Source of the DNA: an uncultured virus (IMG/VR IMGVR_UViG_3300020169_000014)
Lineage: Duplodnaviria > Heunggongvirae > Uroviricota > Caudoviricetes
IMG/VR virus record: IMGVR_UViG_3300020169_000014
Span: 1-64,000 of that record
Length of the DNA: 64,000 bases
Reading direction: 5' to 3' (one strand)
The notes beneath the pieces are model-generated. The model had not been told where the DNA came from. It saw only the letters and a program-made list of their open reading frames with translations, and made no database searches. The position numbers were made by a program, and so were the translations under genes. Positions 20,671 through 53,072 of the stretch are shown one piece after another (position 1 is the stretch's first letter; each line of letters begins with the position of its first letter).

Positions 20671-23600
20671 TTAGTTAAGTAGCGTTCCCGCAGAGTTATA
20701 TACGTTGATTCGATAATGCGAACCTTGTTGACCATCAAGAACATCAGCATCCAGACCTGAACCCGATCCATCTACAGTCTTGACCGCAGTCAACAGTTCA
20801 TTTGCAGTAGAGTATGTTTCATCTACCGAGAACTGACCAGTCGCAGAGTCATATGCGATATCACCAGTAACACTGAATTGATCACGAATGTTTTGTGTCG
20901 TGACCTTGTTATAGGTAATTGTACCAGTTCCAGAGTTATAACTTAAAGAACCGAATCCAGTACCATTATTATTGATACCGATTGCACCACGTGCAAGAGT
21001 ATCAGTATACTGTGTAATGGTAGTTGAAATCGCCCCATCGGTGATTGAGATACCAGTACTTGCGGATATTGCAGAACGGATGTTTGCATCTGTTACCTTC
21101 GCAAAACTAAACTCTCCATTTGAATATGAGAGTGTACCATATCCGGTACCACTATTTGCAGCAGAGAACAATGCAAGAGTTGACGCAGAGTCTACGCCAG
21201 GATTTGCTAAACTAAACTGTCCGGTCGCACTATCATATCCAAGACCCGAATTATCTACACTGAATAAGTTACGGATAGTAGACGTATGGTTGGATAGACT
21301 CGATACAGTACCAGTTACGTCACCTGTTAGGTTTGCGGTGATTGCAGTTGCAGTAAAGTTACCCGAACCATCACGTTCAACAATTGTACTTGCGGTATTC
21401 GCAGAAGTCGCAGTAGTTGCAGAATTCTGTACCTTACCCGCAGTTGAGATTGTTCCGAGTTTAGTATCTGCAATCGCAGCATTTGTATTGATGTCAGCAT
21501 TGACAATAGTATTCGCAGTAATCCCAGTCGTAATAGTAATGTTACTAGTACCATCAAACGAAGTTGCGGTACCAGTCACATCACCAGAAATACCAATAGT
21601 TCTTGAAGTGAGAAGACTATTTGCGGTAGACGCATTACCCGTTACTGCACCAGTAACATTACCATATAATCTGTTGACTTGCAAGTCTGCGAGTTCAAAA
21701 GATGGGTCTGAAGTATTGATGTTTCCACCAACTTCTGGATCGTATTTGTTGAAGAACTTCCAACGACTATCTGTGGTATCACGGAAGACACCCGCATGGG
21801 TATATGGCGCATCAATCGTATTGTAGTTACCGACAATACCAAAATCTTGATTGATTGGTTGTGCGTCACCTTTCCAGTAGTTGTTTAAAGTGTGACCAGT
21901 AGGAGACGAGAAAGTTACCTTGACATTATATCTTAATGGTACAAGAGTATTATCTACACCCAAGTTCCAAGAGGTAGGGCCTGTACCACCGTCCGAATCA
22001 AACGATAACGGAGTAAACTCGCCAATACCTTCCGCAGAGTCGAAACCCCATTGGATAGTATCACCTGCACTATCGGTTCCGGTTATCTTGACAAAATACG
22101 TTCTGTCAGAATCACCTTCATAATATTCTTTGAAAGTCGCATCATTAAGTCCAGATATACCCGCACCGAATACTGTTTCGATGGTATCACCTGCACCAAC
22201 ATAGATGAACTGATCACCAACGTTTAGAGACTGTACAGTAGTTGTTGTTTCAGAACCAAGGATGTTCAGATTACCTGCGATAGTGACATCACCATCTACA
22301 CGTTGGTTACCTTGAACACGAATGTTCTCTGCAATCTCTGGAGCAAGACGGATCTGAATACAACCACCGACATTACCACCAGTTGCGGAATCCGAAACAA
22401 GTACCGTACCAACTTGATATGGCCAGTTAGGATAATCAGGAGAAAATGCTACCATTTCACCCGCACTATCAGGAGAAACGTGAAGGGTATCACCCACATT
22501 AAAGGATGCAGTATTCAACCCACCGTATAGACCACGTACTGTTACATAACCATATGCACCATTAGCGATAGTACTTGATGCAAGTCCAGATGTTGTGTAT
22601 GTTGTACTGAAGTTATCTGCCTTTGCAAGTGAGATTGTCGGGAAGTCATTTGCAGCACCAGTTACATATACAACTTTACCCTTGGGAATAGATGATCCCG
22701 AGTTGTTGAAAACTCGCATGATTTCATCTTGACCAACTTTGACATTGATTGATGAGTTCGAGTATACAAGTGCATCAGGGCCTTGCATATAAAACAAGTT
22801 ACCTTCACGGAAAGCAGGAAGGTTATTGGGAACATCGATATCCGAGTAGGATGATATGTCTACGTTAAGTAGTTTGAAGTCACCAGAATCCGCAGTGATT
22901 TTACCATCAACAATCATACGGTCTTCAACACGGATATATTCTGCGTGTTCTTTCTCAATGTTTACAAGTAGTGAACCCGAAGTAGAATCTACTGAGATTA
23001 CACGACCTACGTGTGTAGGATAACCTTGGTCGATTGATACTTCAGTTGTAGACCACTTACCCGCACTATCAGCAGAAAGGTATGCAAATGCACCTTCGAT
23101 CATATTCGAAGTGTTCAAACCATTTACTAAACCGAACTGAGTCACATAACCGTGGTTCCCGTTCGGGATATCCATAGTTGCAATACCAGTAACATTTGCT
23201 GTAGAAGAAGCATCTGCCTTTGCAAGAGATATTTGGGGGTGGATACCGTGTGCAGTACCGGATACGTATACTGCATCACCATTGTTAATCTGTCCACCGG
23301 TCAAGTTATGAACATATATTAAATGTTCTTGACCGAGGTTGATTGTTACATCTTGAACCAATTCATTGGTTGTTGGTATAAACGATATACCTTTCTGTGG
23401 GTTTGAATCATAGTAGAGTAAACCCGCAAGACTATTAGGTGCAGTTTCTTGTTTAGTTAAGTGTAGACATCCAATCTCTGCGGAGTCAACAGTTACCTTA
23501 CCGAATACAATATCATCGGTAGTTCCGACAGACTGTGCAATCGCAATAGACCCGTCAGTGATTGTGACACCAGTTCCACCAGAGAAATGTGCACGAGTCT

Positions 23601-24900
23601 CGGATGCACTAGGGCCTGTGTATGTAATTACACCAGTACCGTTATTATAAGATAGAGAACCATCTCCACCTGCATCTGTTACTGAGACCAGACCACGTAC
23701 TTCTGAGTCTGTTCTTTGTGTGAAAGAGTATCTACCAGTCGCAGAGTCATATGATAAATCACCACCGGCAGATAAATGCGCACGGACTTCACTCGCATTT
23801 GGGCCAGTGTATGTAAAGATACCTGTGGATGAATCATATGAAAGAGACCCATCACCCCCAGCATCGTTTACTGATACTGTGCCACGTGCGTCTGCATCTG
23901 TATATTGTGTAATACTTGTCGAGATTTGACCATTGGTGATACCAATACCTGTACCTGCACTAAAATGTGCACGGACTTCGGCCGCAGAAGGGCCGGTAAA
24001 GGAGAACGTACCTGTAGAACTATCATACGAGAATGAACCATCTCCGCCATTGTCAGTCGCAGATACCGCAGCACGTGCTCTGGCATTGTTGAAATAGAGA
24101 TTGGTAGAACCACCTTCACTTAAATCATTGGTAGTTTTTAACGCAAAGTCAGAATCAAATCCTGCATATGATACTTCGGTATAACCTAGTGTACCAGTTG
24201 CAGCGTTATATGTCAACGGTAAACCACTTACACCAATCGCATTTCGTGCGGTAGTTGTGGTGGTTGCGGAATCGTAATAGAGGTTAGTCGAGCCTTGTGT
24301 TAGGTCGTCTGTTGTTTTGGTTGCAAGATCTGTATTGAATAGAGATGTTGCATAATATTTGTTTGTGCTACCTTGGGTAAGATCGTCTGTTGTTTTAAGA
24401 GCAAGACGATCATCGAATGCGGAGTCTGCACGTGCAGTTGTGTAGTAAAGGTTAGTCCCTTCACTTAAATCCGAAGTCGAGAAATGTTGCAGACCAATTC
24501 GTGCATTGAATGAACCACCATCTGCGGTGGCCAGTGTAAGAGTTGCATTAGAGGAATCGAAGGATAACCCCGAAACACCTGCAACAGTAACAGTTCCCGC
24601 ACTATCAATTTGACCTTGCGCATTGATAGTCAATACTGGAATGGTTGTGGTAGAACCATAGGTACCTGCACCGACACCAGTGTTGGTGATACTTAACTCA
24701 CCGTTGGTCTCGGTAATGCCGGTTCCACCAGATACTTGTCTGAGTGTTACGATAGAACTAGAGGATGCAGAATCCGTTGTCTTGAAGAAAAGACGACCAT
24801 CATTTGTGTTGATCGCTAATTCGCCAAGTTCTATATTTGATGTAGTCGGGCTCTTGCCCTTAACTGCACTTCTCTTTAATCTAAAAAGTGTATTCGACAT
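20671..24900 (-). CDS. Long fibre-like virion protein (1409 aa)
   Basis: Gly/Thr/Ser-rich; repeats TTDDLTQGSTNLYY and DxGGDGSLSYDSSTG; two similar internal domains (VHN/VFN...G.xVYV.G...ISLAKAD); C-terminal DGSGSGLDADVLDG. Confidence 0.75.
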   Translation of the reverse strand: MSNTLFRLKRSAVKGKSPTTSNIELGELAINTNDGRLFFKTTDSASSSSIVTLRQVSGGTGITETNGELSITNTGVGAGTYGSTTTIPVLTINAQGQIDSAGTVTVAGVSGLSFDSSNATLTLATADGGSFNARIGLQHFSTSDLSEGTNLYYTTARADSAFDDRLALKTTDDLTQGSTNKYYATSLFNTDLATKTTDDLTQGSTNLYYDSATTTTTARNAIGVSGLPLTYNAATGTLGYTEVSYAGFDSDFALKTTNDLSEGGSTNLYFNNARARAAVSATDNGGDGSFSYDSSTGTFSFTGPSAAEVRAHFSAGTGIGITNGQISTSITQYTDADARGTVSVNDAGGDGSLSYDSSTGIFTYTGPNASEVRAHLSAGGDLSYDSATGRYSFTQRTDSEVRGLVSVTDAGGDGSLSYNNGTGVITYTGPSASETRAHFSGGTGVTITDGSIAIAQSVGTTDDIVFGKVTVDSAEIGCLHLTKQETAPNSLAGLLYYDSNPQKGISFIPTTNELVQDVTINLGQEHLIYVHNLTGGQINNGDAVYVSGTAHGIHPQISLAKADASSTANVTGIATMDIPNGNHGYVTQFGLVNGLNTSNMIEGAFAYLSADSAGKWSTTEVSIDQGYPTHVGRVISVDSTSGSLLVNIEKEHAEYIRVEDRMIVDGKITADSGDFKLLNVDISSYSDIDVPNNLPAFREGNLFYMQGPDALVYSNSSINVKVGQDEIMRVFNNSGSSIPKGKVVYVTGAANDFPTISLAKADNFSTTYTTSGLASSTIANGAYGYVTVRGLYGGLNTASFNVGDTLHVSPDSAGEMVAFSPDYPNWPYQVGTVLVSDSATGGNVGGCIQIRLAPEIAENIRVQGNQRVDGDVTIAGNLNILGSETTTTVQSLNVGDQFIYVGAGDTIETVFGAGISGLNDATFKEYYEGDSDRTYFVKITGTDSAGDTIQWGFDSAEGIGEFTPLSFDSDGGTGPTSWNLGVDNTLVPLRYNVKVTFSSPTGHTLNNYWKGDAQPINQDFGIVGNYNTIDAPYTHAGVFRDTTDSRWKFFNKYDPEVGGNINTSDPSFELADLQVNRLYGNVTGAVTGNASTANSLLTSRTIGISGDVTGTATSFDGTSNITITTGITANTIVNADINTNAAIADTKLGTISTAGKVQNSATTATSANTASTIVERDGSGNFTATAITANLTGDVTGTVSSLSNHTSTIRNLFSVDNSGLGYDSATGQFSLANPGVDSASTLALFSAANSGTGYGTLSYSNGEFSFAKVTDANIRSAISASTGISITDGAISTTITQYTDTLARGAIGINNNGTGFGSLSYNSGTGTITYNKVTTQNIRDQFSVTGDIAYDSATGQFSVDETYSTANELLTAVKTVDGSGSGLDADVLDGQQGSHYRINVYNSAGTLLN

Positions 24901-24960: not shown

Positions 24961-26952
24961 TTAGTATGTTCCACCATCGAGTGTTGCGATAGTCACAAAA
25001 CCAGATGTAATGGTGAATTGGTCTGAGTCAAAAGACGCAACACCTTTGTTAGTATAACTTGCAATCTCTGCCGCGAATGTGATAGTATTATCACTGTCTT
25101 GTGCAGCACCATAGGTAATGTCCATACCTTCACCGGCAGCGAAGAATGTGTTACCTAGATGGTCTTCGATATATTCACGAAGAACCGTACCATTGCGATA
25201 GATCTCACCACCAACATCTAGATCTTTGTTGGTGTTCCACTTGTCTCCTGCAACAGAGTAAGTGATTGTTGCATTTGCACCATTGACCGTAATACCTGCA
25301 CCATTTGCAGCGGTCGCATCTGCGGCACTATCTGCAAGAACAAGGTTAAGGTCATTGATCGACATAGTAGTCGAGTTAATGATTGTCTGCGTACCCTGTA
25401 CAACAAGGTCACCCAGTACAAGAACTTGACCACCGTTAGAGTCTCCACCTTTAGGGTCAAGTACAAGAACCTCGGTAGAACTGTTAGTAGAGATCTTGTT
25501 ACCATCGATACGAATTGTATCGGTAGTAATACCGGTTAGACCGGTGAGATCTGTAATAGTCGCACCAAGTGCAACCGTAGTATCACCTATTGTGATGTCA
25601 TCATTTACTAAATCTGCATTTGCAATAGACGCAGCCTTCAGACTTACGTGACCATTCGATATATCAAAGTCAGTATCTTCGAAAGATGCAATACCTTTGT
25701 TGGCACCATTCGCATCTTCACCTTCGATAGAGATGTTAGTACCTGCATGACCTACATTGATACCTTCTCCACCAAGGATAGATACCATGTGACCAGTAAT
25801 AGGAACAATACCATCATCAGTTGTGATTTGTTTCACTACCGAAGAATCGAGACTTACGTCACCAGAGTTGAGTGTGAAGTCACTCGAATTAAATTTAGCG
25901 GTACCCAGTTGTGAATACGATGCGGTTCTTGGTGTAATAGTTACTGTTGCACCTGCACCAGTTACATCCAGACCCTGTACGCCATTACCGAGGATATTGA
26001 AATCATGTCCGATAGGAGTTACAGATCCAGAGTCTGTAGTGATGAGTTTTACTACATCATCCACCAAAGATACTGAACCGGAAGTTACATCAAAGTCATC
26101 AGAGAGGAACTGAGCAACACCCTTCGAAGAAGTAGTCGCATCATCAATTGCATAGTCTACAGTATTTGTAGTTGCGGTATATGTAAGAGTGAGACCATTA
26201 CCGGTTGCGGTAAATGTCAAGTCCGAGTCAAGTAGACTGATAGGATCTGAGTTGACAGTCAAGTTTGTTGCAACGTTCGCAACAGAAGCCGCAGTCAAAC
26301 GACCTTGTGCATCAACTGTGAAAGTTGGAATCTGTGTGGTAGAACCATATGACCCAGGCGTTACCGCAGTACTGTCTAAGTCAAAAGTAATTGCATCATC
26401 AGTAACAGTAGATGTCAGACCTGTACCACCACCGAATGTCAATATACCGGTAGAAGTATTGAACGTGTCATTAGTACCGTTATCTGCACCGATAGTAAAA
26501 GTGTTGGTAGCAATTTGATCATCTACATATCCTTTGTTCGCAGCATCCGAGTCATGGGTAGGAGTCGCAACACCGTGAAGTTGTACGTTTAGAAAATCGA
26601 CTTCATTACCTTGAGTGTCAATTGTAAGTCCACCAGTTACACTGATAGAACTCCCATCAATAATAATGTCATCGACTTTTAAAATATCAAGTTTGCTATC
26701 CGCATCAACAATGAGTGCACTATTCGGGGTAACTGTGCCTTTGTCATGGTCGAGCATTTGAGTGAAGAATTTACCACCAATAACTTCGTGGTTGACTGCA
26801 TTACCTGCGATTTCAGTACCAGTACCGATATATAAACGGTCACCACCATTGGAACCATTATCGGGCAAGTATGAATATGCTAATTCACCTTGGCCAAGTG
26901 TGGACGGATCTCCCGAAGTCCCCGACCGTTTTATTCTTAATAATGATGCCAT
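24961..26952 (-). CDS. Fibre-like virion protein (663 aa)
   Basis: N-terminal RIKRSG..P..L..GELAY shared with the 1409-aa fibre; four (K/L)GxAxF..DF.x.SG.V repeats; ends LDGGTY. Confidence 0.75.
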   Translation of the reverse strand: MASLLRIKRSGTSGDPSTLGQGELAYSYLPDNGSNGGDRLYIGTGTEIAGNAVNHEVIGGKFFTQMLDHDKGTVTPNSALIVDADSKLDILKVDDIIIDGSSISVTGGLTIDTQGNEVDFLNVQLHGVATPTHDSDAANKGYVDDQIATNTFTIGADNGTNDTFNTSTGILTFGGGTGLTSTVTDDAITFDLDSTAVTPGSYGSTTQIPTFTVDAQGRLTAASVANVATNLTVNSDPISLLDSDLTFTATGNGLTLTYTATTNTVDYAIDDATTSSKGVAQFLSDDFDVTSGSVSLVDDVVKLITTDSGSVTPIGHDFNILGNGVQGLDVTGAGATVTITPRTASYSQLGTAKFNSSDFTLNSGDVSLDSSVVKQITTDDGIVPITGHMVSILGGEGINVGHAGTNISIEGEDANGANKGIASFEDTDFDISNGHVSLKAASIANADLVNDDITIGDTTVALGATITDLTGLTGITTDTIRIDGNKISTNSSTEVLVLDPKGGDSNGGQVLVLGDLVVQGTQTIINSTTMSINDLNLVLADSAADATAANGAGITVNGANATITYSVAGDKWNTNKDLDVGGEIYRNGTVLREYIEDHLGNTFFAAGEGMDITYGAAQDSDNTITFAAEIASYTNKGVASFDSDQFTITSGFVTIATLDGGTY

Positions 26953-27180: not shown

Positions 27181-27555
27181 TTACCTTGTTACCGAAGGTG
27201 AGACTTTGATCTTACCCTCTAAAATTCGTTCAATGAGAATATTACCGTCACTATCATTGACCGCTAATTCAACGTCATAGACGTAACGTGTTCTGGTATT
27301 GAGGGTGTCAGTTTGAGTATTTGTGAGGGATAAAACTGCAATACCATCTGTTGCGGGTTCGCTAACGATAGTGGTGAAATCTAGGATCTCATCACTGTCA
27401 ACAGAAGTGTAACTACGTTTCATTTTTGCGTTAACGGTATGTCCAGTCAAGTTTTTCTTGGAACCGTCAGTTTCCTGAAGGTGCAACTCGATTGCAACGT
27501 CTGCGCCTTGATCAATTGTAAAGTCTTCGTAATCTGCCATTCCAGTTCCCATCAA
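27181..27555 (-). CDS. Ig-like adaptor / fibre-attachment protein (BppU-N-like)
   Basis: IDQGAD, NLTGHT, LSLTNTQT, RYVYDVEL, RILEGKIKVSPSVT; start probably at MADY. Confidence 0.65.
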   Translation of the reverse strand: MMGTGMADYEDFTIDQGADVAIELHLQETDGSKKNLTGHTVNAKMKRSYTSVDSDEILDFTTIVSEPATDGIAVLSLTNTQTDTLNTRTRYVYDVELAVNDSDGNILIERILEGKIKVSPSVTR

Positions 27556-27612: not shown

Positions 27613-28308
27613 TTATTCGTCTGAACTAATTTCTTCGAGTAAATCTTCGCGAAGTTCAGCGGATAGTTGGGAAGTATCGAAAGTGAAAGATACTGTACAT
27701 CTCCAACAGTCAGTCTTCGCGGCATGATAGAACAATCTTTCGGGTTCACCGTAATGACCAAAGTATGCTGCCTTGCACTGCCACCCTGGCTTATCTTCCA
27801 TCACCACAACTTCTTTTGATATAGGATCTACATATTCGAATTGACCTTCTCCAGTTTCCGACCACGTGAAGATCAAATTATACGCTGCTGCATTTGCATT
27901 ATTGTGCCAAGAGATAAAACCACCGGGCGGATACCATGCGGTTAGTGCATTATTTTTCACACCCAACCAATTCATAAGTCCTTGATTCATGTGCGCGAGT
28001 TCTGCGGTTCTATCTTTTCTTACCGAGGGATGAACCCCGTTATTGAAAAATTCATGTCCCTTGCGACCAACACTCATTTCATAACCATACATCTGATCGG
28101 GAAATCCTTCGTGTCGGGTTCCTTGATCTAATATTTCTTCCAGATGACCTTTACCCGCCCAGAAATGTCTATTCCGTGATTCGTGAGAACAACTCTTATG
28201 AAATGTTTCCTCGAAGTCAGGGATATCTCTGGTCAAGAAATCTCGATAGGCATTTAATTTCACCAATAAGTCTTGGTTCATCACCGGAATGTCTTGCATA
28301 TAACTCAT
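27613..28308 (-). CDS. 2OG-Fe(II) oxygenase-like protein, paralog of 6504-7127
   Basis: YPPGGFISWHNN ... YHAA ... RCTVSF; shares YNLIFTWSETG and GWxCKAxYFG with the paralog. Confidence 0.6.
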   Translation of the reverse strand: MSYMQDIPVMNQDLLVKLNAYRDFLTRDIPDFEETFHKSCSHESRNRHFWAGKGHLEEILDQGTRHEGFPDQMYGYEMSVGRKGHEFFNNGVHPSVRKDRTAELAHMNQGLMNWLGVKNNALTAWYPPGGFISWHNNANAAAYNLIFTWSETGEGQFEYVDPISKEVVVMEDKPGWQCKAAYFGHYGEPERLFYHAAKTDCWRCTVSFTFDTSQLSAELREDLLEEISSDE

Positions 28309-29054
28309 ATAATATATCCGTCCTTATCTAATCCACAGGAATAATGTCTGACAATAACTTCACCTTCTGGTCTAGTCCTTGCCCAGTTGAATGCGTTATA
28401 ATAGTTCCAACGCAAATCATCTTCCAAGATACCATACTTCAGGTCTTTGTATTTAGGTTCTTTCTCGGTCAACCACCAAAGACTGAACTGATCCCATGAC
28501 CGAAGACTTTCTATATATCCTTCAGGCCACCAGTCACGATCCATTTGTCTGCGTGTGAGATCCCACCAATCATCCATGAACTCACGTACAATAGGTTTGG
28601 TCATATCGTAAAGTGCAACACCACCACATAGAGTGAACTTGGATGGGCCATCGGGAGTATCAAAACTTCTTTCGGCATAGACATATTCACGATCATCGGT
28701 CAATTCAGAGAATAAGATGTCTTCGTCACGTCTTTCCAATTCATCAAAACAAATGCGGATATCTTCGTGTTCCACTTCCATATCAACATCGAGGTACATG
28801 GTTAGGTCATATGGAGAACGAGCCATACCATCTAGTTTTGCACGGTAGTGGGATGAACACCATTCAACATTATCAAATAAATCTCGGTGTATTTCTTCGA
28901 ACATCCACTCTTCGCAGAATAGTGTAATCTTCGCATCTTCGTAATAATCCAGAATAGATTCTGCTAGATTGATCGCATACCGATAGAAGTTAATCTTATT
29001 CGATGCAACCAACACATAACCTTTAGACTTCTCAGACATCTTCCTCAACTCCAA
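28305..29054 (-). CDS. GT-A fold glycosyltransferase-like protein
   Basis: GYVLVA...AINLAESI, RAKLDGMARSPYDLTMYLDVD (DxD), GGVALY, WDQFSLW, WN, IVRHY; likely start ATG at 29039. Confidence 0.75.
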   Translation of the reverse strand: MELRKMSEKSKGYVLVASNKINFYRYAINLAESILDYYEDAKITLFCEEWMFEEIHRDLFDNVEWCSSHYRAKLDGMARSPYDLTMYLDVDMEVEHEDIRICFDELERRDEDILFSELTDDREYVYAERSFDTPDGPSKFTLCGGVALYDMTKPIVREFMDDWWDLTRRQMDRDWWPEGYIESLRSWDQFSLWWLTEKEPKYKDLKYGILEDDLRWNYYNAFNWARTRPEGEVIVRHYSCGLDKDGYII

Positions 29055-29487
29055 GTTCTTCTTTTAAAAGCAACATAGCAAAAAGATTCGCTTCTACCTT
29101 GGACTTTGCTCGTCTAAGTTTAGACTTGAGTTTTCTGTTCTTAGAGTTTTTAATTTCTTCGGTTTCGAAGATTTCTAATTTATAGTTAAAGAGTTCTTCT
29201 AACTTACGTGCACGTGCGTGTTCCACATCACGTTGTTTATCTTCTTCTTTTTCGGCAGCTTTACGAATCTTACGGTCTTCGGTATTTCTATCTACAGACT
29301 CTTCACCTAAAGCATCAATGACTTCATTGAACAATTCATTTTCACTACCATCCTTATTCTTGCGACTCAACATCATTACTTGTCGGGTCTCGCGATCCAG
29401 ATCATCTTTCATTTCTAGGATACAGTTGAGTTTTTCTTTCTCCTCTGTTTCCCAGAACGCATTATCCATCCATCTTTTATAACTCAT
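29032..29487 (-). CDS. Charged helical hypothetical protein (possible fibre chaperone)
   Basis: Good RBS (GGAGAA); E/K/R-rich; directly follows the giant repeat gene and overlaps the glycosyltransferase start. Confidence 0.7.
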   Translation of the reverse strand: MSYKRWMDNAFWETEEKEKLNCILEMKDDLDRETRQVMMLSRKNKDGSENELFNEVIDALGEESVDRNTEDRKIRKAAEKEEDKQRDVEHARARKLEELFNYKLEIFETEEIKNSKNRKLKSKLRRAKSKVEANLFAMLLLKEELGVEEDV

Positions 29488-29536: not shown

Positions 29537-32500
29537 TTAAGCAACCCTTACGTACAAGGTATATGTCTCAATCACTCCTGTTCCGGAATCAACAGTTGTT
29601 CCGGTATAATTACCAGTAAAGTTTCTGGCATAATTTCCTGCGAATGTTCTACTATAGTTACCCGCAAAACCTCTACTATAATTACCAGTAAAGTCACCTA
29701 AGTATGACGAGGTTCTAGTTCTAGTAGAATCTATGGTATATGCTGAATTTCGACTTCTACTAAAAGTGGATACTCTAGTTCGTGCAGAGGTTCTGACCGA
29801 AGTTCTTGAGTAGTCCCCAACAAAAGTTCTACTATAGTTACCAGTAAAGTCTCCGACATAATTAGAAGATCGGGTTCTTGCATATTCACCAACAAAGGTT
29901 CTATTGTAGTTACCCACAAAGTTACCCGCAAAGTCTGAAGTAGAATCCCGAGTATATTCTCCTACAAAGTTTCTGTTGTAGTTACCAACAAAATCTCCTA
30001 CGAAAGTCCGGCCATAATTACCACCAAATATTCTTGAGAAGTTACCAGTGTATTCTCCTACAAAATCAGTCGCACGAGTTCTTGCATATTCTCCCACAAA
30101 GTTTCTGTTGTAGTTGCCGACATAGTTACCCGCAAAACCTCTTGCATAGTTACCAACAAATCCTCTATTGTAGTTACCGACAAAATTACCCGCGAATGTA
30201 CTGATACTATTTCTTGTGTATTCCCCAACAAAAGTTCTATTGAAATTGCCGGTATAATTACCCCCAAATCCACGATTGTAATTACCTGCGAATGCACGAG
30301 CATAGTCACCAATAAAGTTTCCAATAGAGTCGGTTACCCGAGTCCTAGAATAGTTACCTGCGAATGCACGAGCATAGTTACCTTCAAATGCACGAGTCGA
30401 AGTGCGGAGAGATATACGGGTATAGTTACCAACGAATCCTCTATTATAGTTACCGACAAAATTACCTGCGAATGTACTGATACTATTTCTGGTATAGTTT
30501 CCGGTAAAGGTTCTACCATAGTCACCAACAAAGTTTCCAATAGAGTCGGTTATACGAGTTCTTGCGTAGGCAGATACACGATTACGAATATAAGACGATG
30601 CACGAGTACGTATATATGTGGATATTCTACTACGGGTCGATATACGAGTATATTCACCAGTATAGTTGCCGGTGTAGTTGCCTGCAAATCCACGAGTATA
30701 ATCACCAGTGAAATTACCTGCGAACGTGCGAGTATAGTTCGATGACAATGTGAGCATATCAGTGATACTAGGACTTGCTGCGTTTGTAGTATCATCTACA
30801 CGAGGTTCCCAGAACTGTTGATTGGTCGCGGTATCTGTTGAGTAATACAAGTATGTTCTGTGGTATGCAGTAGTGTTACCACTCCAGACAAAATCATTCT
30901 GAGCGGATACAACTTTCTCACCCGCCATATTATAGATACCAGAGTCAGCATGAGCCGCACCGGTACCAGAACCTTCGGGGAAAACGTGACCGACTACCAA
31001 AAACCATTCGTTTTGAGATTCGGTACCATACCACCAACCTCTCGCTTGGAAGTACGGATTACTGTTAGATGCACCATTACTTCTGTTCAATACTGTTCCG
31101 CCAACACCAAGATAGAATGAACCATTACCAATAACTTTACGTCTTACCCATGTAGAGAATCTGTATAGTTTGGTTTTATCAACTGAGAAAGCTGAAGTAT
31201 TCCAACCACCATCTGCATTAGATGTCGCATCTTGATTTGACACATCCCAAACGATATCAGTACCCTTCGGAGAAGTGTCGGAAATACGTGAGTTACCGTC
31301 CCCGTTCTGATTATAGTTAGTTGCAGAACCAGTACCAACTGTCCAAGCAGGAAAGTTCTGCCACAACAAGTTAGATTGATCTGAGTAACGTGTACCAGTT
31401 GTACCTACGAACTGAACGATACTATCACGAGTTGATGTACGAGTATACGTAGAACTTCTGTTTTGAATACGAGTTCTTGTGTAATTACTAGGTCTACTGC
31501 GTGTAGATATTCTAATGTATGCGGATGATCTACTACGTGCCGATATACGAGTATATGTGGAGAGACGGCCGCGGGTCGATGGGTTTATTGAAGTGCGAAT
31601 ATATGAAGAATTTCTACTACGGGTCGATATTCTAGTATACGCAGAGATGCGAGTTCGCGAATAGTCACCTATAAAGTTTCGCGAATAGTTTCCTATGTAG
31701 TCTCCGGTATAATATCCAATGCGAGTGTAGTCGCCTATGTAGTCACCTGCATAAGATCCAATGCGAGTATAGTCACCCGTAAAGTCACCTGCGTAATATC
31801 CAATGCGAGTAAAGTATAATGGAGTTATTCTATTACGAATAGATATGCGAGTATAGTCTCCGGTATAGTACAATGTGCGAGTATAGTTACCGATGTAATA
31901 TAGAGTTCGAGTATAGTCGCCTGTATAATACAATGTACGAGTATAGTTACCGGTGTAATATAGAGTTCGAGTATAGTCGCCCGTAAAGTTACCTATATAA
32001 TATCCGGTTCGGATATAGGTATCGATTCGATTCGAAGTACGGGTACTTGTTCTAATGTACGTACCGGTTCCAATTCTAGTACGTATAGATGTTCTGATAT
32101 AATATCCGGTCGCAGTTCTGGTTCTCGAAGAATATCTCAGGTAATTCGCAACCCCCAAATAATCACCGGTATAATACACTGTCTGTTTAACTATTCGAGT
32201 ATAGTCACCTACATAGTTAACTATTCTATTATAGTTACCTACAAAATTACCAACATAATACAATGTACGAGTGTAGTTACCTGTGAAATTACCAATGTAA
32301 TACAATGTACGAGTGTAGTTACCTGTGAAATCACCTGCATAATATGATGTACGTTGGTAGTATAATGTAGCAATTCTGTCTCTTATTGATATACGTTGGT
32401 AGTTACCAGTCGCAATTCTGGTACGAATATATGTTCCGGTGGCAGTTCTGGTACGAATATATGTTCCGGTGGCAGTTCTGGTTCTGATATAGTCACCAGT

Positions 32501-34897
32501 TGCAATTCTTATACGAGTATAATTTCCGGTATAGTTACCAGTATAGGTCGAATCACGAGTATATGTTAAAATTCGACTACTAGTTCGAAGACTCGTTCGG
32601 ATATAGTTGAGTGTGCGAACTGAAGTTCGAAGACTCGTTCGGATATAGTTGAGTGTGCGAACTGAAATACGTGTGCTGTTTCTGGTATATGCAGAAGGAC
32701 GAGTACGGCCATATTCTCCTACGAACCCTCTATTATAATTGCCAGTATAATTGCCAGCAAACGCACGAGTATAATTTCCGGTATAGTTACCAATGTAGTT
32801 TCCGGCAAATGTTCTTTGGTAGTTACCAGTATAGTCGCCAGCAAACGCACGGTTATAATTTCCGGTATAGTTACCAGCAAATGATCTACCATAGTCGCCG
32901 ACATAATTACCGACAAATGTTCTTGCGTAATTACCACCAAAGTTACCGACATATCCTTGGAATCTGTCGCGAGTATATGTTACCAATGAATTCCGTGAAG
33001 AAATACGAGTGTAGTTGGAACCTCTTGTTCTTGCACTAATACGTGTTGATATACGAGAATAGTTGCCGGTATAGTCACCCGCAAACCCACGTGAATAGTT
33101 ACCTATAAATGTTCTATTATAATTACCAACAAATGTTCTATTATAGTTACCAACATAGTCACCGGTAAAAGTTACAAGTCTATCCCGAACATAATTGGAA
33201 ACTCGGCCACGAGTGTAGTTACCAATAAAGTCACCGGTAAAGTCTGTTACTCGATCACGTGTATATGCGGATATTCTCGTGCGTGTATAATTGCCTGTAT
33301 AATTACCTGCATAATTAGAAACACGAATTCTTGCGTATGCAGAGATACGAGTACGGCCGTAGTTACCAACATAGTTACCGGTAAAAGTCGTTAGTTGATC
33401 TCTGGTGTATGTGGAGCTTCTAGTTCGGGTATATGCGGAGATACGAGTACGGGTACTTATTCTAGAGTATGATGATACTCTGTTACGTGCATAGTTGCCA
33501 ACAAAGTCGCCAATAAAGGATGTTACTCGATCACGAATATATGCACTGGTACGTGTTCGCGAATATGTTGATATGCGATTACGTGAGTATGTTCCTGCGT
33601 ATGCGGATACTCTAGTACGGGAATAATCCCCAACAAAATTACCAATATAGTTTCCCGAAAACACGGTTGTGTATGTAGATGTTCTGTTACGAGTATATGT
33701 ACTCAACCTGTTGCGAATACTATTTCTACTGTATGCAGATACTCTTGTTCTAGAATAATTGCCTACAAAGTTACCTGTGAAAGTATTGATACTATCTCTG
33801 GTATATGCAGAAGATCTATTGCGAACATACTCGCCCACAAAGATTCTAGAGAAAGTATCAGTACTGTTTCTAGTGAAAGTTGAAGCACGGTTTCTTGTGT
33901 ACTCACCTACGTAATTACCGACATACTCACCCACATAATCTCTGATATATTGTCCCGAAAAGTTTCGAGTGTAGTTGCCAATATAATTTCCACCAAAATC
34001 TCGGGTGAACGTATTTGTGCTATTACGAGTGTATAGTGAAGTTCTTGTTCTTGCGTATGCGGATGAACGATCACGAGTATAAGAAGATGCACGAGTACGA
34101 ACATATGCAAGTTCTGAAGTTGTTCTTTTAGTATTGGTCGCAGTACCTTTTGCGGCCCAAGTTCCTGCACTTACCGGAGTTCCCTGAGTCGCAGATCTTA
34201 ATTGGTAAGAACCAATATTACCCACCTTTCCCCTAAGAGTTTTACAGTGTTGTCCATAAGTGTAAGTAATCTGGTTAACAGATTGTTCTTGTAATCCACC
34301 AAAACTGGCGGCAGAACCTGACCCAATCATACCAATCGGAGACGTGGCTGTCGGTGCAGTCATTGCATCACGTTGGTAGATATTGTATACTGTAGAAGTT
34401 CCGTTACCTAATGTATCTGTGTATACAGCGGGGATAAATGTACCATAGTCCGCACTAGGTGCAGAAGAACCGAGGTAAAAGGTGCCTGGATAATCAGATA
34501 TTGCAATACGTGCATTCAGACGAGTACATAAGGTATCCATATCTACATCAGTAAATTCATGAATACCTACATCACCCGAAGTGTTCCAACCAACCGGTCT
34601 GTTATAAAAACTACCAGTATAGTTCGCATCATTAGATAGTTGTCTTAGATTAGTCGTAGTTGTGCCGGAAGTGATAGATGATGCGGGATGGGTACCATCA
34701 GGTTCATTGTAGAAAGTATCAACGAAAGAACCAATGATAGTACCACTAGAGAGATGCAAGTCTCCCGCAGAAGAACCCGAAGAATTCTTTAGTTGAATAC
34801 CTGCAAGATAGGCGAGATAGTTCTCTTCCGTAGGAGTCATCTCCTTCAGATCACCATTCGTACCTTCTAACTTTAGTGGGATATCAGATGCGGCCAC
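29537..34897 (-). CDS. Giant self-complementary tetrapeptide-repeat protein A (1786 aa), predicted beta-hairpin fibre with an inserted globular domain
   Basis: 264-aa N-domain paralogous to 34946-38032; units YxRx, RxSx, SxRx, (F/Y)xGx; non-repetitive 221-aa insert; ends ETYTLYVRVA. Confidence 0.85.
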   Translation of the reverse strand: MAASDIPLKLEGTNGDLKEMTPTEENYLAYLAGIQLKNSSGSSAGDLHLSSGTIIGSFVDTFYNEPDGTHPASSITSGTTTTNLRQLSNDANYTGSFYNRPVGWNTSGDVGIHEFTDVDMDTLCTRLNARIAISDYPGTFYLGSSAPSADYGTFIPAVYTDTLGNGTSTVYNIYQRDAMTAPTATSPIGMIGSGSAASFGGLQEQSVNQITYTYGQHCKTLRGKVGNIGSYQLRSATQGTPVSAGTWAAKGTATNTKRTTSELAYVRTRASSYTRDRSSAYARTRTSLYTRNSTNTFTRDFGGNYIGNYTRNFSGQYIRDYVGEYVGNYVGEYTRNRASTFTRNSTDTFSRIFVGEYVRNRSSAYTRDSINTFTGNFVGNYSRTRVSAYSRNSIRNRLSTYTRNRTSTYTTVFSGNYIGNFVGDYSRTRVSAYAGTYSRNRISTYSRTRTSAYIRDRVTSFIGDFVGNYARNRVSSYSRISTRTRISAYTRTRSSTYTRDQLTTFTGNYVGNYGRTRISAYARIRVSNYAGNYTGNYTRTRISAYTRDRVTDFTGDFIGNYTRGRVSNYVRDRLVTFTGDYVGNYNRTFVGNYNRTFIGNYSRGFAGDYTGNYSRISTRISARTRGSNYTRISSRNSLVTYTRDRFQGYVGNFGGNYARTFVGNYVGDYGRSFAGNYTGNYNRAFAGDYTGNYQRTFAGNYIGNYTGNYTRAFAGNYTGNYNRGFVGEYGRTRPSAYTRNSTRISVRTLNYIRTSLRTSVRTLNYIRTSLRTSSRILTYTRDSTYTGNYTGNYTRIRIATGDYIRTRTATGTYIRTRTATGTYIRTRIATGNYQRISIRDRIATLYYQRTSYYAGDFTGNYTRTLYYIGNFTGNYTRTLYYVGNFVGNYNRIVNYVGDYTRIVKQTVYYTGDYLGVANYLRYSSRTRTATGYYIRTSIRTRIGTGTYIRTSTRTSNRIDTYIRTGYYIGNFTGDYTRTLYYTGNYTRTLYYTGDYTRTLYYIGNYTRTLYYTGDYTRISIRNRITPLYFTRIGYYAGDFTGDYTRIGSYAGDYIGDYTRIGYYTGDYIGNYSRNFIGDYSRTRISAYTRISTRSRNSSYIRTSINPSTRGRLSTYTRISARSRSSAYIRISTRSRPSNYTRTRIQNRSSTYTRTSTRDSIVQFVGTTGTRYSDQSNLLWQNFPAWTVGTGSATNYNQNGDGNSRISDTSPKGTDIVWDVSNQDATSNADGGWNTSAFSVDKTKLYRFSTWVRRKVIGNGSFYLGVGGTVLNRSNGASNSNPYFQARGWWYGTESQNEWFLVVGHVFPEGSGTGAAHADSGIYNMAGEKVVSAQNDFVWSGNTTAYHRTYLYYSTDTATNQQFWEPRVDDTTNAASPSITDMLTLSSNYTRTFAGNFTGDYTRGFAGNYTGNYTGEYTRISTRSRISTYIRTRASSYIRNRVSAYARTRITDSIGNFVGDYGRTFTGNYTRNSISTFAGNFVGNYNRGFVGNYTRISLRTSTRAFEGNYARAFAGNYSRTRVTDSIGNFIGDYARAFAGNYNRGFGGNYTGNFNRTFVGEYTRNSISTFAGNFVGNYNRGFVGNYARGFAGNYVGNYNRNFVGEYARTRATDFVGEYTGNFSRIFGGNYGRTFVGDFVGNYNRNFVGEYTRDSTSDFAGNFVGNYNRTFVGEYARTRSSNYVGDFTGNYSRTFVGDYSRTSVRTSARTRVSTFSRSRNSAYTIDSTRTRTSSYLGDFTGNYSRGFAGNYSRTFAGNYARNFTGNYTGTTVDSGTGVIETYTLYVRVA

Positions 34898-47218: not shown

Positions 47219-48589
47219 CTAGATAGTAATTACGATTTTCAGGTCTTCGGTTTGATCGGTGGATCGCGTTACAGCTGAACGGTTATCAATATATAGTAGA
47301 TCCCCAGTGTACGGATTAAACTCACCGTCTACTTTACTGGTTATCGAACCGTTAATATTTGTGTTACCTACCACCTGAATTTCTTCTGCAACTTGGAAGG
47401 AAGTGAATCCAGTTGTTTCGTTTTGATGATACCAGATTGTATCCGAATCATTAGTGTTGTCGATGATTGCAACTGCGCCAGAAGTAACACCTTGAATCTG
47501 AGATTTTTGCACAATAGACTTGACAAATCCTGATCCATCGTGTATAATACTATTAAGTGCCAGAGCGGAAGTAGATGTAAGTAAAACACCTTCTGCACTA
47601 TCAACTCTTGGATTGCGTACCAATAACACTTGACGGAATATCTCGTCACCAGTAATAAAGTCACCGTTTTCAATACCATCTGGTTTGGAGTTAAACATAA
47701 CACCATTTGCCTTCAGGTCAATAACAGGATTAGATCCAACACCAGATGCTTGTCCCAATACAGGACGAACAATACAAGAGTCACCACCACCACCAGAAAT
47801 TAATACGTTTGCATAGTCGTAACCACTACCAAAGTAAGAGTTGCCCGAGTTACCCGCAGAGTCGGCCTTGACCTTGATGTCTACGATAGTCTCACCCGCA
47901 CGTACCGCATAAGCAATCGCACCAGTACCATTACCTACGATACTTACCGAAGGTGCAGATGTATAACCAGATCCACCATTAGTTACTTTATAACCAACGA
48001 TTTGTCCTTTTACCGCAGCGTTCTGGACTAGTTGTTGTTGTAGATCTTCGGCAGGAGAATCCGAGTCGGTTGAACCAACAAATCTTACAGGCATATATGC
48101 AGATGACAAAAACTTATCTGCACGTAATGCACCGATAGAGTAAAGGAACTTCCACGTGTAACCATCCGCAGTACGGAATGGTGTACCGGTAGTGTTACCA
48201 GTAGGTTGGTTGGTAGATAACTGCGAAGAACCATCCTGTTTCTTACCCTGTTCCAAACAGATGTAAATCTCGTTATTCGAGTTGATTACATAGAAAGGAT
48301 TCTCGGGGAAACCTACATCGTTATCATCATATGCAGAGTAGATAAGGTTAGCAACCCATATTCTACGTGGAATTACATATGAGGCATCTTCGATGAGTTT
48401 TGCAGATTGCAAAGAATTTCTTGCCTGTCTGACAGAACGTGAATCATTAGTAGGAACAGTCGCAAGATCAGAAGCATTCCAATCTTCGGATCTACCAATG
48501 GCCGCATAGTATCTTACAGAAGAAGAGTCCAAGTCCGTAAGAAGATCATCTAAGACCTGTTTTTTAAATTGATCGGTAATTACTGGCAT
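47219..48589 (-). CDS. gp8: Baseplate wedge subunit
   Basis: IGRSEDW, VIPRRIW, FYVINS..IYICL, DGYTWKFLYSI, GDLLYIDNR, QTEDLKIVI. Confidence 0.9.
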   Translation of the reverse strand: MPVITDQFKKQVLDDLLTDLDSSSVRYYAAIGRSEDWNASDLATVPTNDSRSVRQARNSLQSAKLIEDASYVIPRRIWVANLIYSAYDDNDVGFPENPFYVINSNNEIYICLEQGKKQDGSSQLSTNQPTGNTTGTPFRTADGYTWKFLYSIGALRADKFLSSAYMPVRFVGSTDSDSPAEDLQQQLVQNAAVKGQIVGYKVTNGGSGYTSAPSVSIVGNGTGAIAYAVRAGETIVDIKVKADSAGNSGNSYFGSGYDYANVLISGGGGDSCIVRPVLGQASGVGSNPVIDLKANGVMFNSKPDGIENGDFITGDEIFRQVLLVRNPRVDSAEGVLLTSTSALALNSIIHDGSGFVKSIVQKSQIQGVTSGAVAIIDNTNDSDTIWYHQNETTGFTSFQVAEEIQVVGNTNINGSITSKVDGEFNPYTGDLLYIDNRSAVTRSTDQTEDLKIVITI

Positions 48590-48602
48590 TTTTTATATAT
48601 TC

Positions 48603-49604
48603 CTACGAAGTTGTTACGTTATCAGTTTTATTTATCACAATCCACTGAGTCCCAAACCACATCAAAGTAACAGATTCGTTCTGTGGTAGTATAAGACTTG
48701 CATACGCAGCAAGATTACTTGAAGTTTCGTTAATAGTTTGTGTACCCGCACCTTTATTAACAAGATATTTAACTTCACCATTTAGTCCAGATGTACCACT
48801 CGCTAAACTGTGTGCACCGGTAGTACTATTGGTGAATAATGTTATTGGTGAATTTGCACTTACAGTACCACCACCTGTCGAAATACCCTGTGTTTTTAAT
48901 ACAAGTTTAGAGTCAACTTTAACTCCACCATTACCCGAACCCTTGAGTGATAGTGCGGAGTTTGGTTCACCCGCAGCTTGCACTATTGCAGGTACGCTAG
49001 TGGGGGAGTTACCAATTCGAATAAAGTTTGTTGCAGAACCGGAGTCTTGGAATTGTATTAATTCGTTACCCGCACTATCAAGAATCTCTTTACCGATAAC
49101 CGGAGAGTTAAGAGTAGGATTCTGAAGTGTCTTGTTCTTTAATATTGCGGTGTGGTCATTAAATACAAAAGTATCTGCCGCACCCAACAGTGGTAATGTA
49201 ATTGTTCTATTCGCAGCCAACTCATTCACTGCAACCACATATCTGTGATTCGATGAAGTGTCATTAATCTGTGGGGTAGTCAAAATAGGACTTAGTAAAG
49301 TCTTGTTAGACAATGTTTGTGTTGCAGAGTCCATAACCAATGCACCAGAATAGTTCGGTATTGTAACCGTGTTATCTGCTGTTGGGTTAGCGACTTGCAA
49401 ACGAGTCTCAAAATTGTTCTCGACAGATCCTTCGAATATAATACCCGAAGAGTCAAAGTCGATCAACGCCATCAGAGATGCACCATCTCCAAGTTTGCTG
49501 TAGATCTCTTGGAAGTTTTGTTCAATCTTCAACGATGCAGTACGAAGTGTATCACCCGTACCATCGTTCGCGATTGTGCCTCTGTTTAATACTTGTCTAG
49601 TCAT
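48603..49604 (-). CDS. Baseplate/fibre connector with gp9/gp10-type N-terminus
   Basis: NRGTIANDGTGDTLR...KIEQNFQEIY; L.NKTL..P repeats. Confidence 0.7.
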   Translation of the reverse strand: MTRQVLNRGTIANDGTGDTLRTASLKIEQNFQEIYSKLGDGASLMALIDFDSSGIIFEGSVENNFETRLQVANPTADNTVTIPNYSGALVMDSATQTLSNKTLLSPILTTPQINDTSSNHRYVVAVNELAANRTITLPLLGAADTFVFNDHTAILKNKTLQNPTLNSPVIGKEILDSAGNELIQFQDSGSATNFIRIGNSPTSVPAIVQAAGEPNSALSLKGSGNGGVKVDSKLVLKTQGISTGGGTVSANSPITLFTNSTTGAHSLASGTSGLNGEVKYLVNKGAGTQTINETSSNLAAYASLILPQNESVTLMWFGTQWIVINKTDNVTTS

Positions 49605-49632
49605 TCTCTTTTTACCTAAAGATTATATGTTC

Positions 49633-49640
49633 TATTTATA
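49633..49640 (-). promoter_or_regulatory. T4-type late promoter
   Basis: TATAAATA; the following leader resembles the one at 53073-53080. Confidence 0.75.
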
Positions 49641-50750
49641 CTAATAATTGTTATCTATTACTTCACGGAGAGAAATTTCTCCATCAGAATCTCCGACCGG
49701 AGTCTGGAATAGATTATTATCAGAATCTATACGAGAAACCTGTGGGTTCCACGTGAAGGTTTCTTGATCTATACTTTCTGTAGATGATAAATCGAATCCA
49801 GAGTAAGTAGTTGAACCGTCACTATCATCATCCAACGTTGGGGAATCAGGCGTGAGGTATTCACCAAGACTTGAATACAGTCTATCGAGGTTATCGATTG
49901 TAAGATCTTGCACGTCATTCAGGTCATTACCCATAGGTATACCCAGATACAATTCACTTGAGTCTCTGGCCAGGCCTGCACTACTACCCATATTTGTTCG
50001 GAACTTCAAAGTTCCTCCTTCATCGGTCGCACCAAAGTCGAATAGTGCGGTATGTTGTTGGAAACCAAGTGGTGATAATCCACCAATACCTTCCAATACA
50101 ATCGGTGGTTTGATTGCTTCGCCCGGATCATACTGTAACTGATCTATTGATGCAGTACCTACGATTTGAGTGAGACCACCAAGGTACATACCGGCAGGAT
50201 GCACCATGAGTTTATATGCATCACGCCATTGCGCAAGAGAAAGTTCTGATCTAATCTGTATTGCGTAGGTTTGATATAGTTTATTGTCAGTAAGGTACCT
50301 TGCACTCTCTGCACCAACCTTAGACTCATTCAACTTGAATATGTATTGTTTTGTGTAAACAACATCTGGTTCAATGTCAAAGAAAGTTTTAAAGAATTGT
50401 CGAATACTGTATCTAGTACCTTTGGCACGATACAGATAACTTGAGTATTTTACTGCGGTTCTTTTATCAACAAACCCTTGAAAGTAATTCTGACCTAACA
50501 GATACTCATCTTCAAAATAAGTAAGAAGATCCAAATCTGTTTGTGACACATCTCGCGTCTCGAACATGTTGTTCAAAAAACGAGTCAACGAATCTTCTTG
50601 ATTCTCAAAGTCAAAGTAGGCCTTGATGAAACTTACAAACTTAGGATACTCTGCAAGGATATGCGAAGGTAAGACGGACTCGATCTGATCCGCTCTCAGA
50701 TTGATGTCACGTCTTGTAGTATCTTTATGTGTTTTATCGAATATTGACAT
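49641..50750 (-). CDS. Baseplate wedge protein (short gp7-like)
   Basis: LPSHILAEYPKFVSFIKAYFDF, YRAKGT..SI..FF, HPAGM; follows gp6. Confidence 0.75.
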   Translation of the reverse strand: MSIFDKTHKDTTRRDINLRADQIESVLPSHILAEYPKFVSFIKAYFDFENQEDSLTRFLNNMFETRDVSQTDLDLLTYFEDEYLLGQNYFQGFVDKRTAVKYSSYLYRAKGTRYSIRQFFKTFFDIEPDVVYTKQYIFKLNESKVGAESARYLTDNKLYQTYAIQIRSELSLAQWRDAYKLMVHPAGMYLGGLTQIVGTASIDQLQYDPGEAIKPPIVLEGIGGLSPLGFQQHTALFDFGATDEGGTLKFRTNMGSSAGLARDSSELYLGIPMGNDLNDVQDLTIDNLDRLYSSLGEYLTPDSPTLDDDSDGSTTYSGFDLSSTESIDQETFTWNPQVSRIDSDNNLFQTPVGDSDGEISLREVIDNNY

Positions 50751-53046: not shown

Positions 53047-53072
53047 TTGTCTTTCCTAAAATATTATAGTTC

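Follow-up and report, generated by a model that had tools for sequence, protein, structure and literature searches.

The stretch of DNA examined here, referred to as the window, comprises 64,000 nucleotides (nt) of an uncultured tailed virus (IMG/VR record IMGVR_UViG_3300020169_000014, positions 1 to 64,000) and holds the structural module of a T4-like myovirus, i.e., genes for the portal, the sheath, the large terminase, head closure, and the baseplate wedge and hub. One of its genes, on the minus strand, encodes P0001, a protein of 1786 amino acids (aa) in which an N-terminal domain (N-domain) is followed by two long arms of four-residue units joined by a short turn. A preliminary description of this gene had claimed that the two arms, of 638 aa each, are complementary to each other unit by unit, and its coordinates, lengths and register have all been confirmed. 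P0001 is proposed to serve a marine T4-like myovirus as a structural fibre protein or adhesin. Its parts can be delimited as follows (positions are those of the window):

29537..34897, minus strand: whole gene of P0001 (1786 aa), with a GTG start and the stop codon at 29537-29539

34106..34897, minus strand: N-terminal base domain (residues 1-264), the conserved signature of the family

32192..34105, minus strand: outgoing arm (residues 265-902, 638 aa), made of 4-aa units of the kinds YxRx, RxSx/SxRx and (F/Y)xGx and, towards the tip, some inserted dipeptides

32174..32191, minus strand: turn VKQTVY (residues 903-908, 6 aa), with the centre of symmetry between Q905 and T906

31400..32173, minus strand: inner part of the return arm (residues 909-1166), opposite residues 645-902 according to an ungapped anti-diagonal and the pair list

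30737..31399, minus strand: non-repeat globular insert of 221 aa (residues 1167-1387), a predicted knob, by whose length the two registers are offset (221)

29597..30736, minus strand: outer part of the return arm (residues 1388-1767, 95 units), opposite residues 265-644, with 83 of 95 pairs obeying the rule given below and a segment score of 96

29540..29596, minus strand: C-terminal tail (residues 1768-1786), ending in ETYTLYVRVA, conserved in the family and modelled together with the N-domain in a relative

The outgoing arm begins with the unit YVRT at 34105 (residue 265), and the return arm finishes with the unit YTGT at 29597 (residue 1767). The return arm spans 859 aa (residues 909-1767), from which subtraction of the 221-aa insert leaves 638 aa, equal to the outgoing arm. 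Three kinds of unit are distinguished: P for aromatic-x-Arg-x, G for aromatic-x-Gly-x, and S for non-aromatic units, mostly RxSx or SxRx. The pairing rule that was scored allows P to face P (YxRx/YxRx) and S to face G (RxSx or SxRx against (F/Y)xGx); positions 1 and 3 of each unit carry the code. According to a composition count, both arms are devoid of Lys, His, Trp, Met, and Cys and contain 14-15% Arg, 18-19% Tyr plus Phe, 10-12% Gly, 26-29% Thr plus Val plus Ile, and 4-5% Asp plus Glu, with a net charge of +70 in the outgoing arm and +56 in the return arm, i.e., +126 per chain. N-x-S/T triplets account for 47 of the 117 Asn in the arms, compared to 29 ± 4.5 in shuffles; this raised count arises as a by-product of the junction between units that end in N and units that begin with Y-T.

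For the outer part of the arms, unit k of residues 265-644 was set against unit 96-k of residues 1388-1767. In this antiparallel register, 83 of the 95 pairs obey the rule (P:P or S:G), and S:S pairs are absent from all 95. Other antiparallel shifts between -40 and +40 units peak at 45 of 93 (0.48) and 44 of 89 (0.49), while parallel pairing of the outer units peaks at 51 of 94 (0.54). The value of 83 was reached by none of 20,000 unit shuffles (mean 31.6, maximum 51), by none of 20,000 word shuffles (mean 31.0, maximum 58), and by none of 20,000 word shuffles scored at the best of 21 shifts (mean 41.3, maximum 59). When all anti-diagonals of the whole protein are scanned with no preset register, two ungapped segments emerge, one of residues 269-636 against 1396-1763 (score 96) and one of residues 653-892 against 919-1158 (score 80); the next best score is 28. 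The two register offsets differ by 221, which is exactly the length of the insert. The inner pairing continues to obey the rule as far as the 6-aa turn and includes matched dipeptide inserts: LN/GY, LN/GS, LT/GY, GD/LY, GT/LY, GN/LY, LY/GT, LY/GY, and VN/AN. As seen in the string of unit types, the order of units along the arms is aperiodic, and therefore only one register satisfies the rule.

The particulars of the preliminary description withstood this scrutiny. It had counted 32 Arg-initial units in the outer pairs, all opposed by an aromatic-x-Gly unit, which is exact (32/32). The six unit pairs quoted as examples (RASS/FTGN, YTRD/YARN, RSSA/FAGN, FGGN/RTSS, YIGN/STRT, and FSGQ/RNSA) are all found, the three dipeptide matches it had noticed nearer the tip (LN/GY, GT/LY, LY/GT) are present in the inner pair list, and the register closes, as described, on the turn VKQTVY (32191-32174), centred between Q905 and T906. 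Its claim that the aperiodic order encodes one unique register agrees with the best alternative shift of 0.49 as opposed to 83/95, and when unit i is set against unit N-i, neither shuffled nor shifted registers come near this value.

The mirrored arrangement exists in the protein and not in the nucleic acid. Base complementarity between the arm-coding regions at the expected register is at most 0.34 against a background of 0.26 ± 0.04, and higher values, 0.354 and 0.367, occur at unrelated offsets. A repeat search returned just 5 inverted repeats in the gene, of 16-22 nt. Because no DNA-level inverted repeat corresponds to the arms, the complementarity is confined to the protein level. A DNA or RNA hairpin was also considered as the cause of the mirrored arms and was rejected, there being no inverted repeat that matches them.

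P0001 belongs to a family that is recognized by its N-domain. A phmmer search with residues 1-264 against 1.84 billion representatives matched 330 cluster representatives at E<=1e-3, each standing for a cluster at 50% identity. The C-terminal motif Y.L[YF].[RK].[AS] ends 90 of the 152 family proteins examined. Among 50,697 GenBank phage records, C48C1 is the only one with the N-domain, while IMG/VR contributes 22 loci, with full-length proteins of 742, 1527, 1566, 1575, 1585, 1786, 1826, and 1911 aa. P0001 itself has no significant match to a Pfam or PHROGs family. No Pfam repeat family matches it at E<=0.1, the only two rows having E-values of 0.35 and 0.77, far below curated cut-offs, and a phmmer search of the whole protein against all PDB chains found 0 sequence relatives at E<=1.

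The antiparallel code is retained in relatives. With the same rule, all of 13 proteins score higher at their best antiparallel than at their best parallel pairing (antiparallel/parallel: 96/27, 123/51, 116/27, 115/21, 121/18, 99/30, 50/18, 47/30, 37/21, 38/18, 33/12, 31/16, and 16/10); the parallel score served as the control, and a shuffle of 4-aa blocks was set aside as too destructive for a fair null. Arms that keep the rule span from ~70 to ~750 aa across relatives: ~538-578 aa in L012, L014, L015, and L018, 638 aa in P0001, 652 aa in L004, and ~754 aa in L010. In L012, L014, L015, and L018, the outermost units and a long inner stem share one anti-diagonal, with ~50-90 residues per arm between these segments that are not detected by this code. 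The loop of the same four proteins contains a further 120-160 residues, which plausibly form a tip domain.

Since each relative retains an ungapped register, every unit that was gained or lost in one arm must have been matched in the other. Between lineages, the unit-type strings of arm 1 are 59-79% alike, at an amino-acid identity of 43-47% and with 144-220 gap positions. A comparison of the pair strings of P0001 and L012 yields 36 insertions or deletions (indels) of rule-obeying pairs and 6 rule-keeping double changes, next to 23 changes into or out of the non-obeying class and 16 indels of pairs within that class; this comparison includes a large, noisy class of other events, in which typed positions that are out of phase were counted. 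A particularly clear case is L004, whose N-domain is 99% identical to that of P0001: arm 1 carries a 14-aa insertion of the G-rich kind near residue 868, and arm 2 carries a different 14-aa insertion of the S-rich kind near residues 932-946. The two insertions lie at mirrored sites, within the ambiguity of the local repeats, and the inner register is shifted by 28. Altogether, 902 typed unit pairs, taken from score-selected segments of 12 relatives, comprise 322 P:P, 461 S:G, 66 G:G, 51 P:G, 2 P:S, and 0 S:S pairs.

The register is tied to the conserved ends of the protein. An antiparallel score of at least 15 is found in 37 of 139 distinct complete family members, all of which (37/37) beat the parallel control, 35 of them by at least 1.5-fold. 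In 26 of the 37, with lengths of 436-1911 aa, the register sum minus the protein length amounts to 238-266, and 18 of the 20 proteins with the motif show an offset of -4 or -5 from a conserved N-domain Trp; several of these register-anchored proteins are near-duplicates. In the other 11 of the 37, the register appears to deviate as expected for inserts in one arm. As the register is anchored at the base, the unit next to the N-domain is opposed by the one that directly precedes the C-terminal tail. Family members with other kinds of repeat were inspected by eye: P0077 has seven NFxGVRxV units and then five xFTGPQPQ units, and P0016 has Lys-rich units (YNKV, YTKN) in its first half and Asp/Glu-rich units (YEG., YDG.) in its second. 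The subfamilies of P0077, P0016, and P0019 may use other unit pairs, e.g., VRxV against PQPQ, or Lys against Asp/Glu.

A second member of the family lies directly upstream of P0001:

34946..38032, minus strand: adjacent paralog of 1028 aa that shares the N-domain (42% identity) and the C-terminal tail and has a fold-back register of its own

The N-domains of the two proteins match with an E-value of 1e-57. In the paralog, residues 274-341 face 938-1005 and residues 378-569 face 710-901, on one anti-diagonal. Matched against each other, P0001 and the paralog reach at best a score of 29, i.e., background, compared to self scores of 96 and 80 for P0001 and 69 for the paralog, and the two fibres, made in the same cell, are therefore not expected to mispair. 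This lack of cross-match fits the idea that the aperiodic order of units acts as an address.

For the base of the protein, a structure was predicted with AlphaFold2 (AF2) for P0070, a relative of 436 aa, using 50 family sequences (mean predicted local distance difference test, pLDDT, 75.5; predicted template modelling score, pTM, 0.69). By blocks, pLDDT is mostly 90-98 in the N-domain and 84-97 in the last 26 residues, and long strands are modelled at residues 260-293 and 399-434. The model supports a base to which both ends of the chain contribute and from which strands depart and return. A complex prediction with three copies of residues 250-436 of P0070 scored 0.00 and has no bearing on oligomerisation. 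With VIA-align, the P0070 base aligns to 8b6v, 2qp2, and 3tow with Z of 7.4, 6.8, and 5.9 (116-124 residues, root-mean-square deviation 3.4-3.8, identity 8-10%), values below 8 being in the range that is common for unrelated models. The best fold matches of the base, MABP/MACPF-associated β-prism domains (Mp2Ba1, Plu-MACPF, MVB12B), are accordingly weak (Z <8), and a Foldseek search of the P0070 model against PDB and BFVD found nothing at E<=1e-3.

Regarding the arms, composition and the AF2 strands at the arm roots point to β-structure. Were a unit part of a β-strand, its positions 1 and 3 would point to one side and its positions 2 and 4 to the opposite side. If position 1 meets position 3 of the opposed unit, the contacts would be Tyr:Arg, Arg:Gly, and Ser:Phe; with the other offset, they would be Tyr:Tyr, Arg:Gly, Arg:Phe, and Ser:Arg. 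Mutual information computed for the context positions of P:P pairs mostly reflects unit type and common ancestry and fixes no residue-level register. The absence of S:S pairs, together with the tolerance for G:G pairs, would fit a rule by which units bearing Arg cannot face each other, while a gap can be borne.

Taken together, the arms of P0001 probably form an intramolecular fibre shaft that runs out and back, with its register fixed by the aperiodic code. The pairing would thus be physical and within one chain, and the arms would be β-structure, ~200 nm long if fully extended at 0.33 nm per residue. In the proposed mechanism, the N-domain (residues 1-264) and the last ~19 residues together make the base, from which the chain would exit, extend 638 residues outward, and reverse within 6 residues. 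It would then return antiparallel for 638 residues, paired with the outgoing arm over the full length, and a globular knob of 221 residues would protrude from the return arm ~258 residues from the tip. The pairing would be specified by the three kinds of unit in their aperiodic string, with Arg/Ser units never opposed to each other. Such a code could prevent slippage, keep the arms equal in length, and stop mispairing with the co-encoded paralog. The knob on the shaft may be the receptor-binding element, and the net charge of +126 may help to contact anionic cell surfaces. The preliminary description had envisaged one enormous antiparallel β-hairpin. Its single antiparallel register, its short turn, and a base formed by the N-domain and the C-terminal strand are supported by the register statistics, the lack of a DNA-level cause, the rule kept in relatives with other arm lengths and unit orders, the mirrored 14-aa insertions and the AF2 base, while a single, extended, two-stranded β-hairpin of ~200 nm, held by cation-π and large/small contacts, is still conjecture. 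In terms of oligomeric state, the shaft could be a single ribbon or, as is usual for fibres, a trimer with six strands.

Several observations weigh against an out-and-back shaft of this kind. Within P0001, 12 of the 95 outer pairs break the rule (5 G:G, 5 P:G, and 2 in which an aromatic unit is neither P nor G). P0001 itself was the source of the rule, and the segments in relatives were chosen by score. Most of the 139 members, namely 102 with other repeats, give no signal with this code (27 score higher than the parallel control, 26 lower, and 49 the same), and the fold-back has therefore been demonstrated for one subfamily only. An unguided scan for mutual information was weak: the maximum fell on the anchored offset in 7 of 61 scannable other-repeat members and, among 19 positive controls, in just 7. 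The peaks at +29 to +36 probably arise at the edge, where fewer pairs are available. The structure predictions lose confidence beyond the base: residues 288-402 of P0070 have pLDDT <50, and AF2 of the P0001 tip (residues 756-1055, single sequence) is uninformative, with a mean pLDDT of 37.7. This low-confidence tip model consists of short stacked strands of 12-14 residues with 2-residue breaks, rather than of one hairpin. A shaft with a charge of +126 and 14-15% Arg is chemically unusual, and ~200 nm would be about twice the length expected for the tail. Finally, the sequence symmetry would look the same whether one chain forms a hairpin or separate chains pair in a two-fold antiparallel manner.

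The alternative that survives best keeps the paired arms but does not arrange them as one straight ribbon: they could be wound into a compact superhelix or solenoid, or three hairpins could form a six-stranded tube, with the coded residues packing in the core or between chains. This arrangement, which we regard as rather doubtful, would be in line with the typically trimeric state of tail fibres (PMC12143355, in part) and with T4 gp37, which forms a six-stranded antiparallel needle (PMC7291167, in part), as well as with the broken strands of the AF2 tip model and with the mutual information, which fixes no residue-level register. However, no result obtained here favours a trimer of P0001, the base of P0070 is confidently modelled as a self-contained monomer (pTM 0.69), and the tip model, given its mean pLDDT, is unreliable. 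Less probable still, and in our view improbable, is pairing between two or more antiparallel chains, in which arm 1 of one chain would lie against arm 2 of another and a domain swap would dock each C-terminal tail on the N-domain of the other chain, giving a rod that is twice as long, with bases at both ends. Complementarity at i + j = constant would equally be expected from a two-fold antiparallel dimer, and so would the co-modelling of N-domain and C-terminal tail. It is disfavoured by the register, which is unbroken up to a turn of just 6 residues, and by the loop region of 120-160 aa in L012, L014, and L018, which on a single register suits a tip domain with adjacent ends; moreover, a fibre that is attached at both ends would have no obvious place on a baseplate.

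It is very hard to credit that the arms do not pair physically and that the mirror pattern stems from the origin of the repeats (inverted duplication or symmetric expansion) or from composition. The arms do share the same few units, and tandem duplication of 14-aa blocks occurs, but there is no DNA-level inverted repeat, and opposed units are complementary rather than identical. Likewise, the mirrored insertions of L004 differ in sequence, the rule survives 43-47% amino-acid identity and 144-220 gap positions, S:S pairs number 0 among the 902 typed pairs, and the paralog has a code of its own without cross-match. Just as remote is a parallel β-solenoid or a disordered low-complexity linker without contacts between i and N-i: solenoids do include short repeats with much G, N, T, and aromatics, and AF2 is not confident on the arms, yet in all 13 proteins the antiparallel score lies far above the parallel score, Pfam offers no repeat family at E<=0.1, and a disordered chain would conserve neither a mirrored code nor arms of equal length. 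Parallel β-solenoids of the pentapeptide-repeat type and similar were rejected as candidates given the lack of a Pfam repeat match, the parallel score of 27 versus the antiparallel score of 96, and the aperiodic order of units.

Returning to the intramolecular out-and-back shaft, the closest known system is the needle domain of gp37, the tip protein of the T4 long tail fibre, which reportedly is the subject of Bartual et al. 2010 and of the entry 2XGF. The arms of the gp37 needle are a few tens of residues long, compared to 638 residues per arm in P0001, which is more than 10 times longer. In both proteins each chain runs out to the tip and back with antiparallel shaft strands (for P0001, as read from sequence only), the binding element, putative in P0001, is placed at the distal end or close to it, and a chaperone gene of its own is found nearby. 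P0001 is thus alike in topology but is not a member of this system: it shows no sequence match (0 in PDB at E<=1, nothing significant in Pfam and PHROGs). The gp37 needle has His-x-His motifs that bind iron along its axis (PMC6957217, in part), whereas the arms of P0001 contain 0.0% His and hence no His-x-His iron sites. Furthermore, the register of P0001 is set by an aperiodic code of three units, and its knob sits on the side of the return arm, the tip being a bare 6-residue turn. 

A similar outline is known from SMC, Rad50, and MukB, which form antiparallel intramolecular coiled coils, with the N- and C-terminal pieces making up one head and a hinge at the far end. P0001 resembles them in having a head from both chain ends, long matched arms that are antiparallel, a far turn, and arm lengths that change together, but their arms are α-helical heptads, while P0001 has a β-type sequence, and there is no homology. 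An RNA stem-loop with Watson-Crick covariation is a formal analogue only, in that it shares an antiparallel linear code, a unique register, compensatory changes, and paired indels; in P0001, however, the complementarity is between four-residue protein units. Tentatively, and as a possibility that we would not yet back, P0001 could be a true protein duplex, i.e., an extended antiparallel β-ribbon of ~200 nm, single or three per fibre, whose register, length and self-specificity reside in a three-letter code that evolves like RNA stems and is orthogonal between paralogs.

The preliminary description knew of no described fibre with such a complementarity code. Likewise, none of the papers listed in a literature search describes a fibre with such a pairing code, and the main text of a tail-fibre atlas (PMC12143355) contains none of the terms ‘hairpin’, ‘antiparallel’, ‘fold back’, ‘folds back’, and ‘six-stranded’. 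The out-and-back shaft itself does have some precedent in the T4 gp37 needle (PMC7291167, in part). If the arms pair as read here, P0001 would exemplify a design principle for fibrous proteins that was not found in print, in which aperiodic complementary units fix the register of long repetitive strands. A phage could then build a fibre of chosen length from low-complexity sequence without slippage, fibre length could change stepwise by paired duplications, and paralogous fibres could avoid mispairing. The arms would represent a natural, addressable pairing code for β-strands and, for protein design, a natural rule set for heterospecific β-strand pairing. As the family is without a Pfam domain, a significant PHROG or a PDB relative, and is represented in the GenBank phage records searched only by the unpublished C48C1, it would therefore constitute an unstudied host-recognition organ of abundant marine T4-like phages.

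The shaft appears to display binding modules, as suggested by the insert of P0001, the LamG and FG-GAP domains of relatives, and non-repeat stretches in the C48C1 protein. In a tblastn search with the whole protein, query residues 1181-1400 or 1214-1400, i.e., approximately the insert, match 15 Vibrio phage records (31-37% identity, E-values of 2e-25 to 4e-19), annotated as ‘virion structural protein’ or ‘hypothetical protein’. No Pfam domain was found in the insert; its nearest named Atlas cluster is the carbohydrate-binding family CBM_4_9 (0.89, rank 9). As a lead only, the insert may be a carbohydrate-binding or receptor-binding knob. The family member P0273 (1798 aa) carries a Laminin_G_3 (ConA-like lectin) domain and eight FG-GAP repeats, and the insert of P0001 is not homologous to this LamG cargo. 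The C48C1 member, P0002 (3347 aa, L001 5439-15482), has a hairpin of residues 864-1261 against 1406-1803 with a tip region in the loop. By eye, its return arm contains several non-repeat stretches, and a stretch of ~70 aa seems to be repeated exactly, beside a domain that resembles the P0001 insert, which could be a real duplication or an assembly artefact.

The genomic setting is that of a tail fibre. The P0001 gene is located in the tail and baseplate module, between the baseplate wedge and hub genes (47219-57956) and a gene for a fibre chaperone-like protein:

27181..27555, minus strand: tail-fibre assembly chaperone-like protein (124 aa; phrog_1084, phrog_3304) downstream of P0001, syntenic in phage C48C1

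This protein matches phrog_1084 with an E-value of 8e-21 and phrog_3304, ‘L-shaped tail fiber protein assembly’, with 3.4e-13, and the Pfam family LtfC-like with 8.6e-4, which is below the curated cut-off. The same gene order is found in phage C48C1. We take the locus to be the slot that gp9-gp12 and wac occupy in T4. For the portal protein, identity amounts to 72% with its counterpart in Phage C48C1, which is filed under Kyanoviridae, and to ~52% with the portal proteins of Methylophilales phage Melnitz, the Pelagibacter phages Mosig and HTVC008M, and cyanomyoviruses. Two further fibre-like proteins are encoded on the minus strand at 20671-24900 (1409 aa) and 24961-26952 (663 aa) and have similar N-termini (..L.R.KRS....G.P..L..GELA..); neither shows tetrapeptide arms or a fold-back signal.

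The interval that separates the fibre gene from the chaperone-like gene contains three small genes (open reading frames 29032-29487, 28305-29054, and 27613-28308, minus strand), with similar sizes and the same order in C48C1. None of the three matched a Pfam or PHROG family, even at relaxed thresholds. One of them encodes a protein of 249 aa with 244 homologs, all unnamed, and another encodes a protein of 231 aa with weak Atlas leads to 2OG-Fe(II) and Asp/Arg hydroxylase clusters (0.87). These small genes may serve to modify the fibre or to help assemble it.

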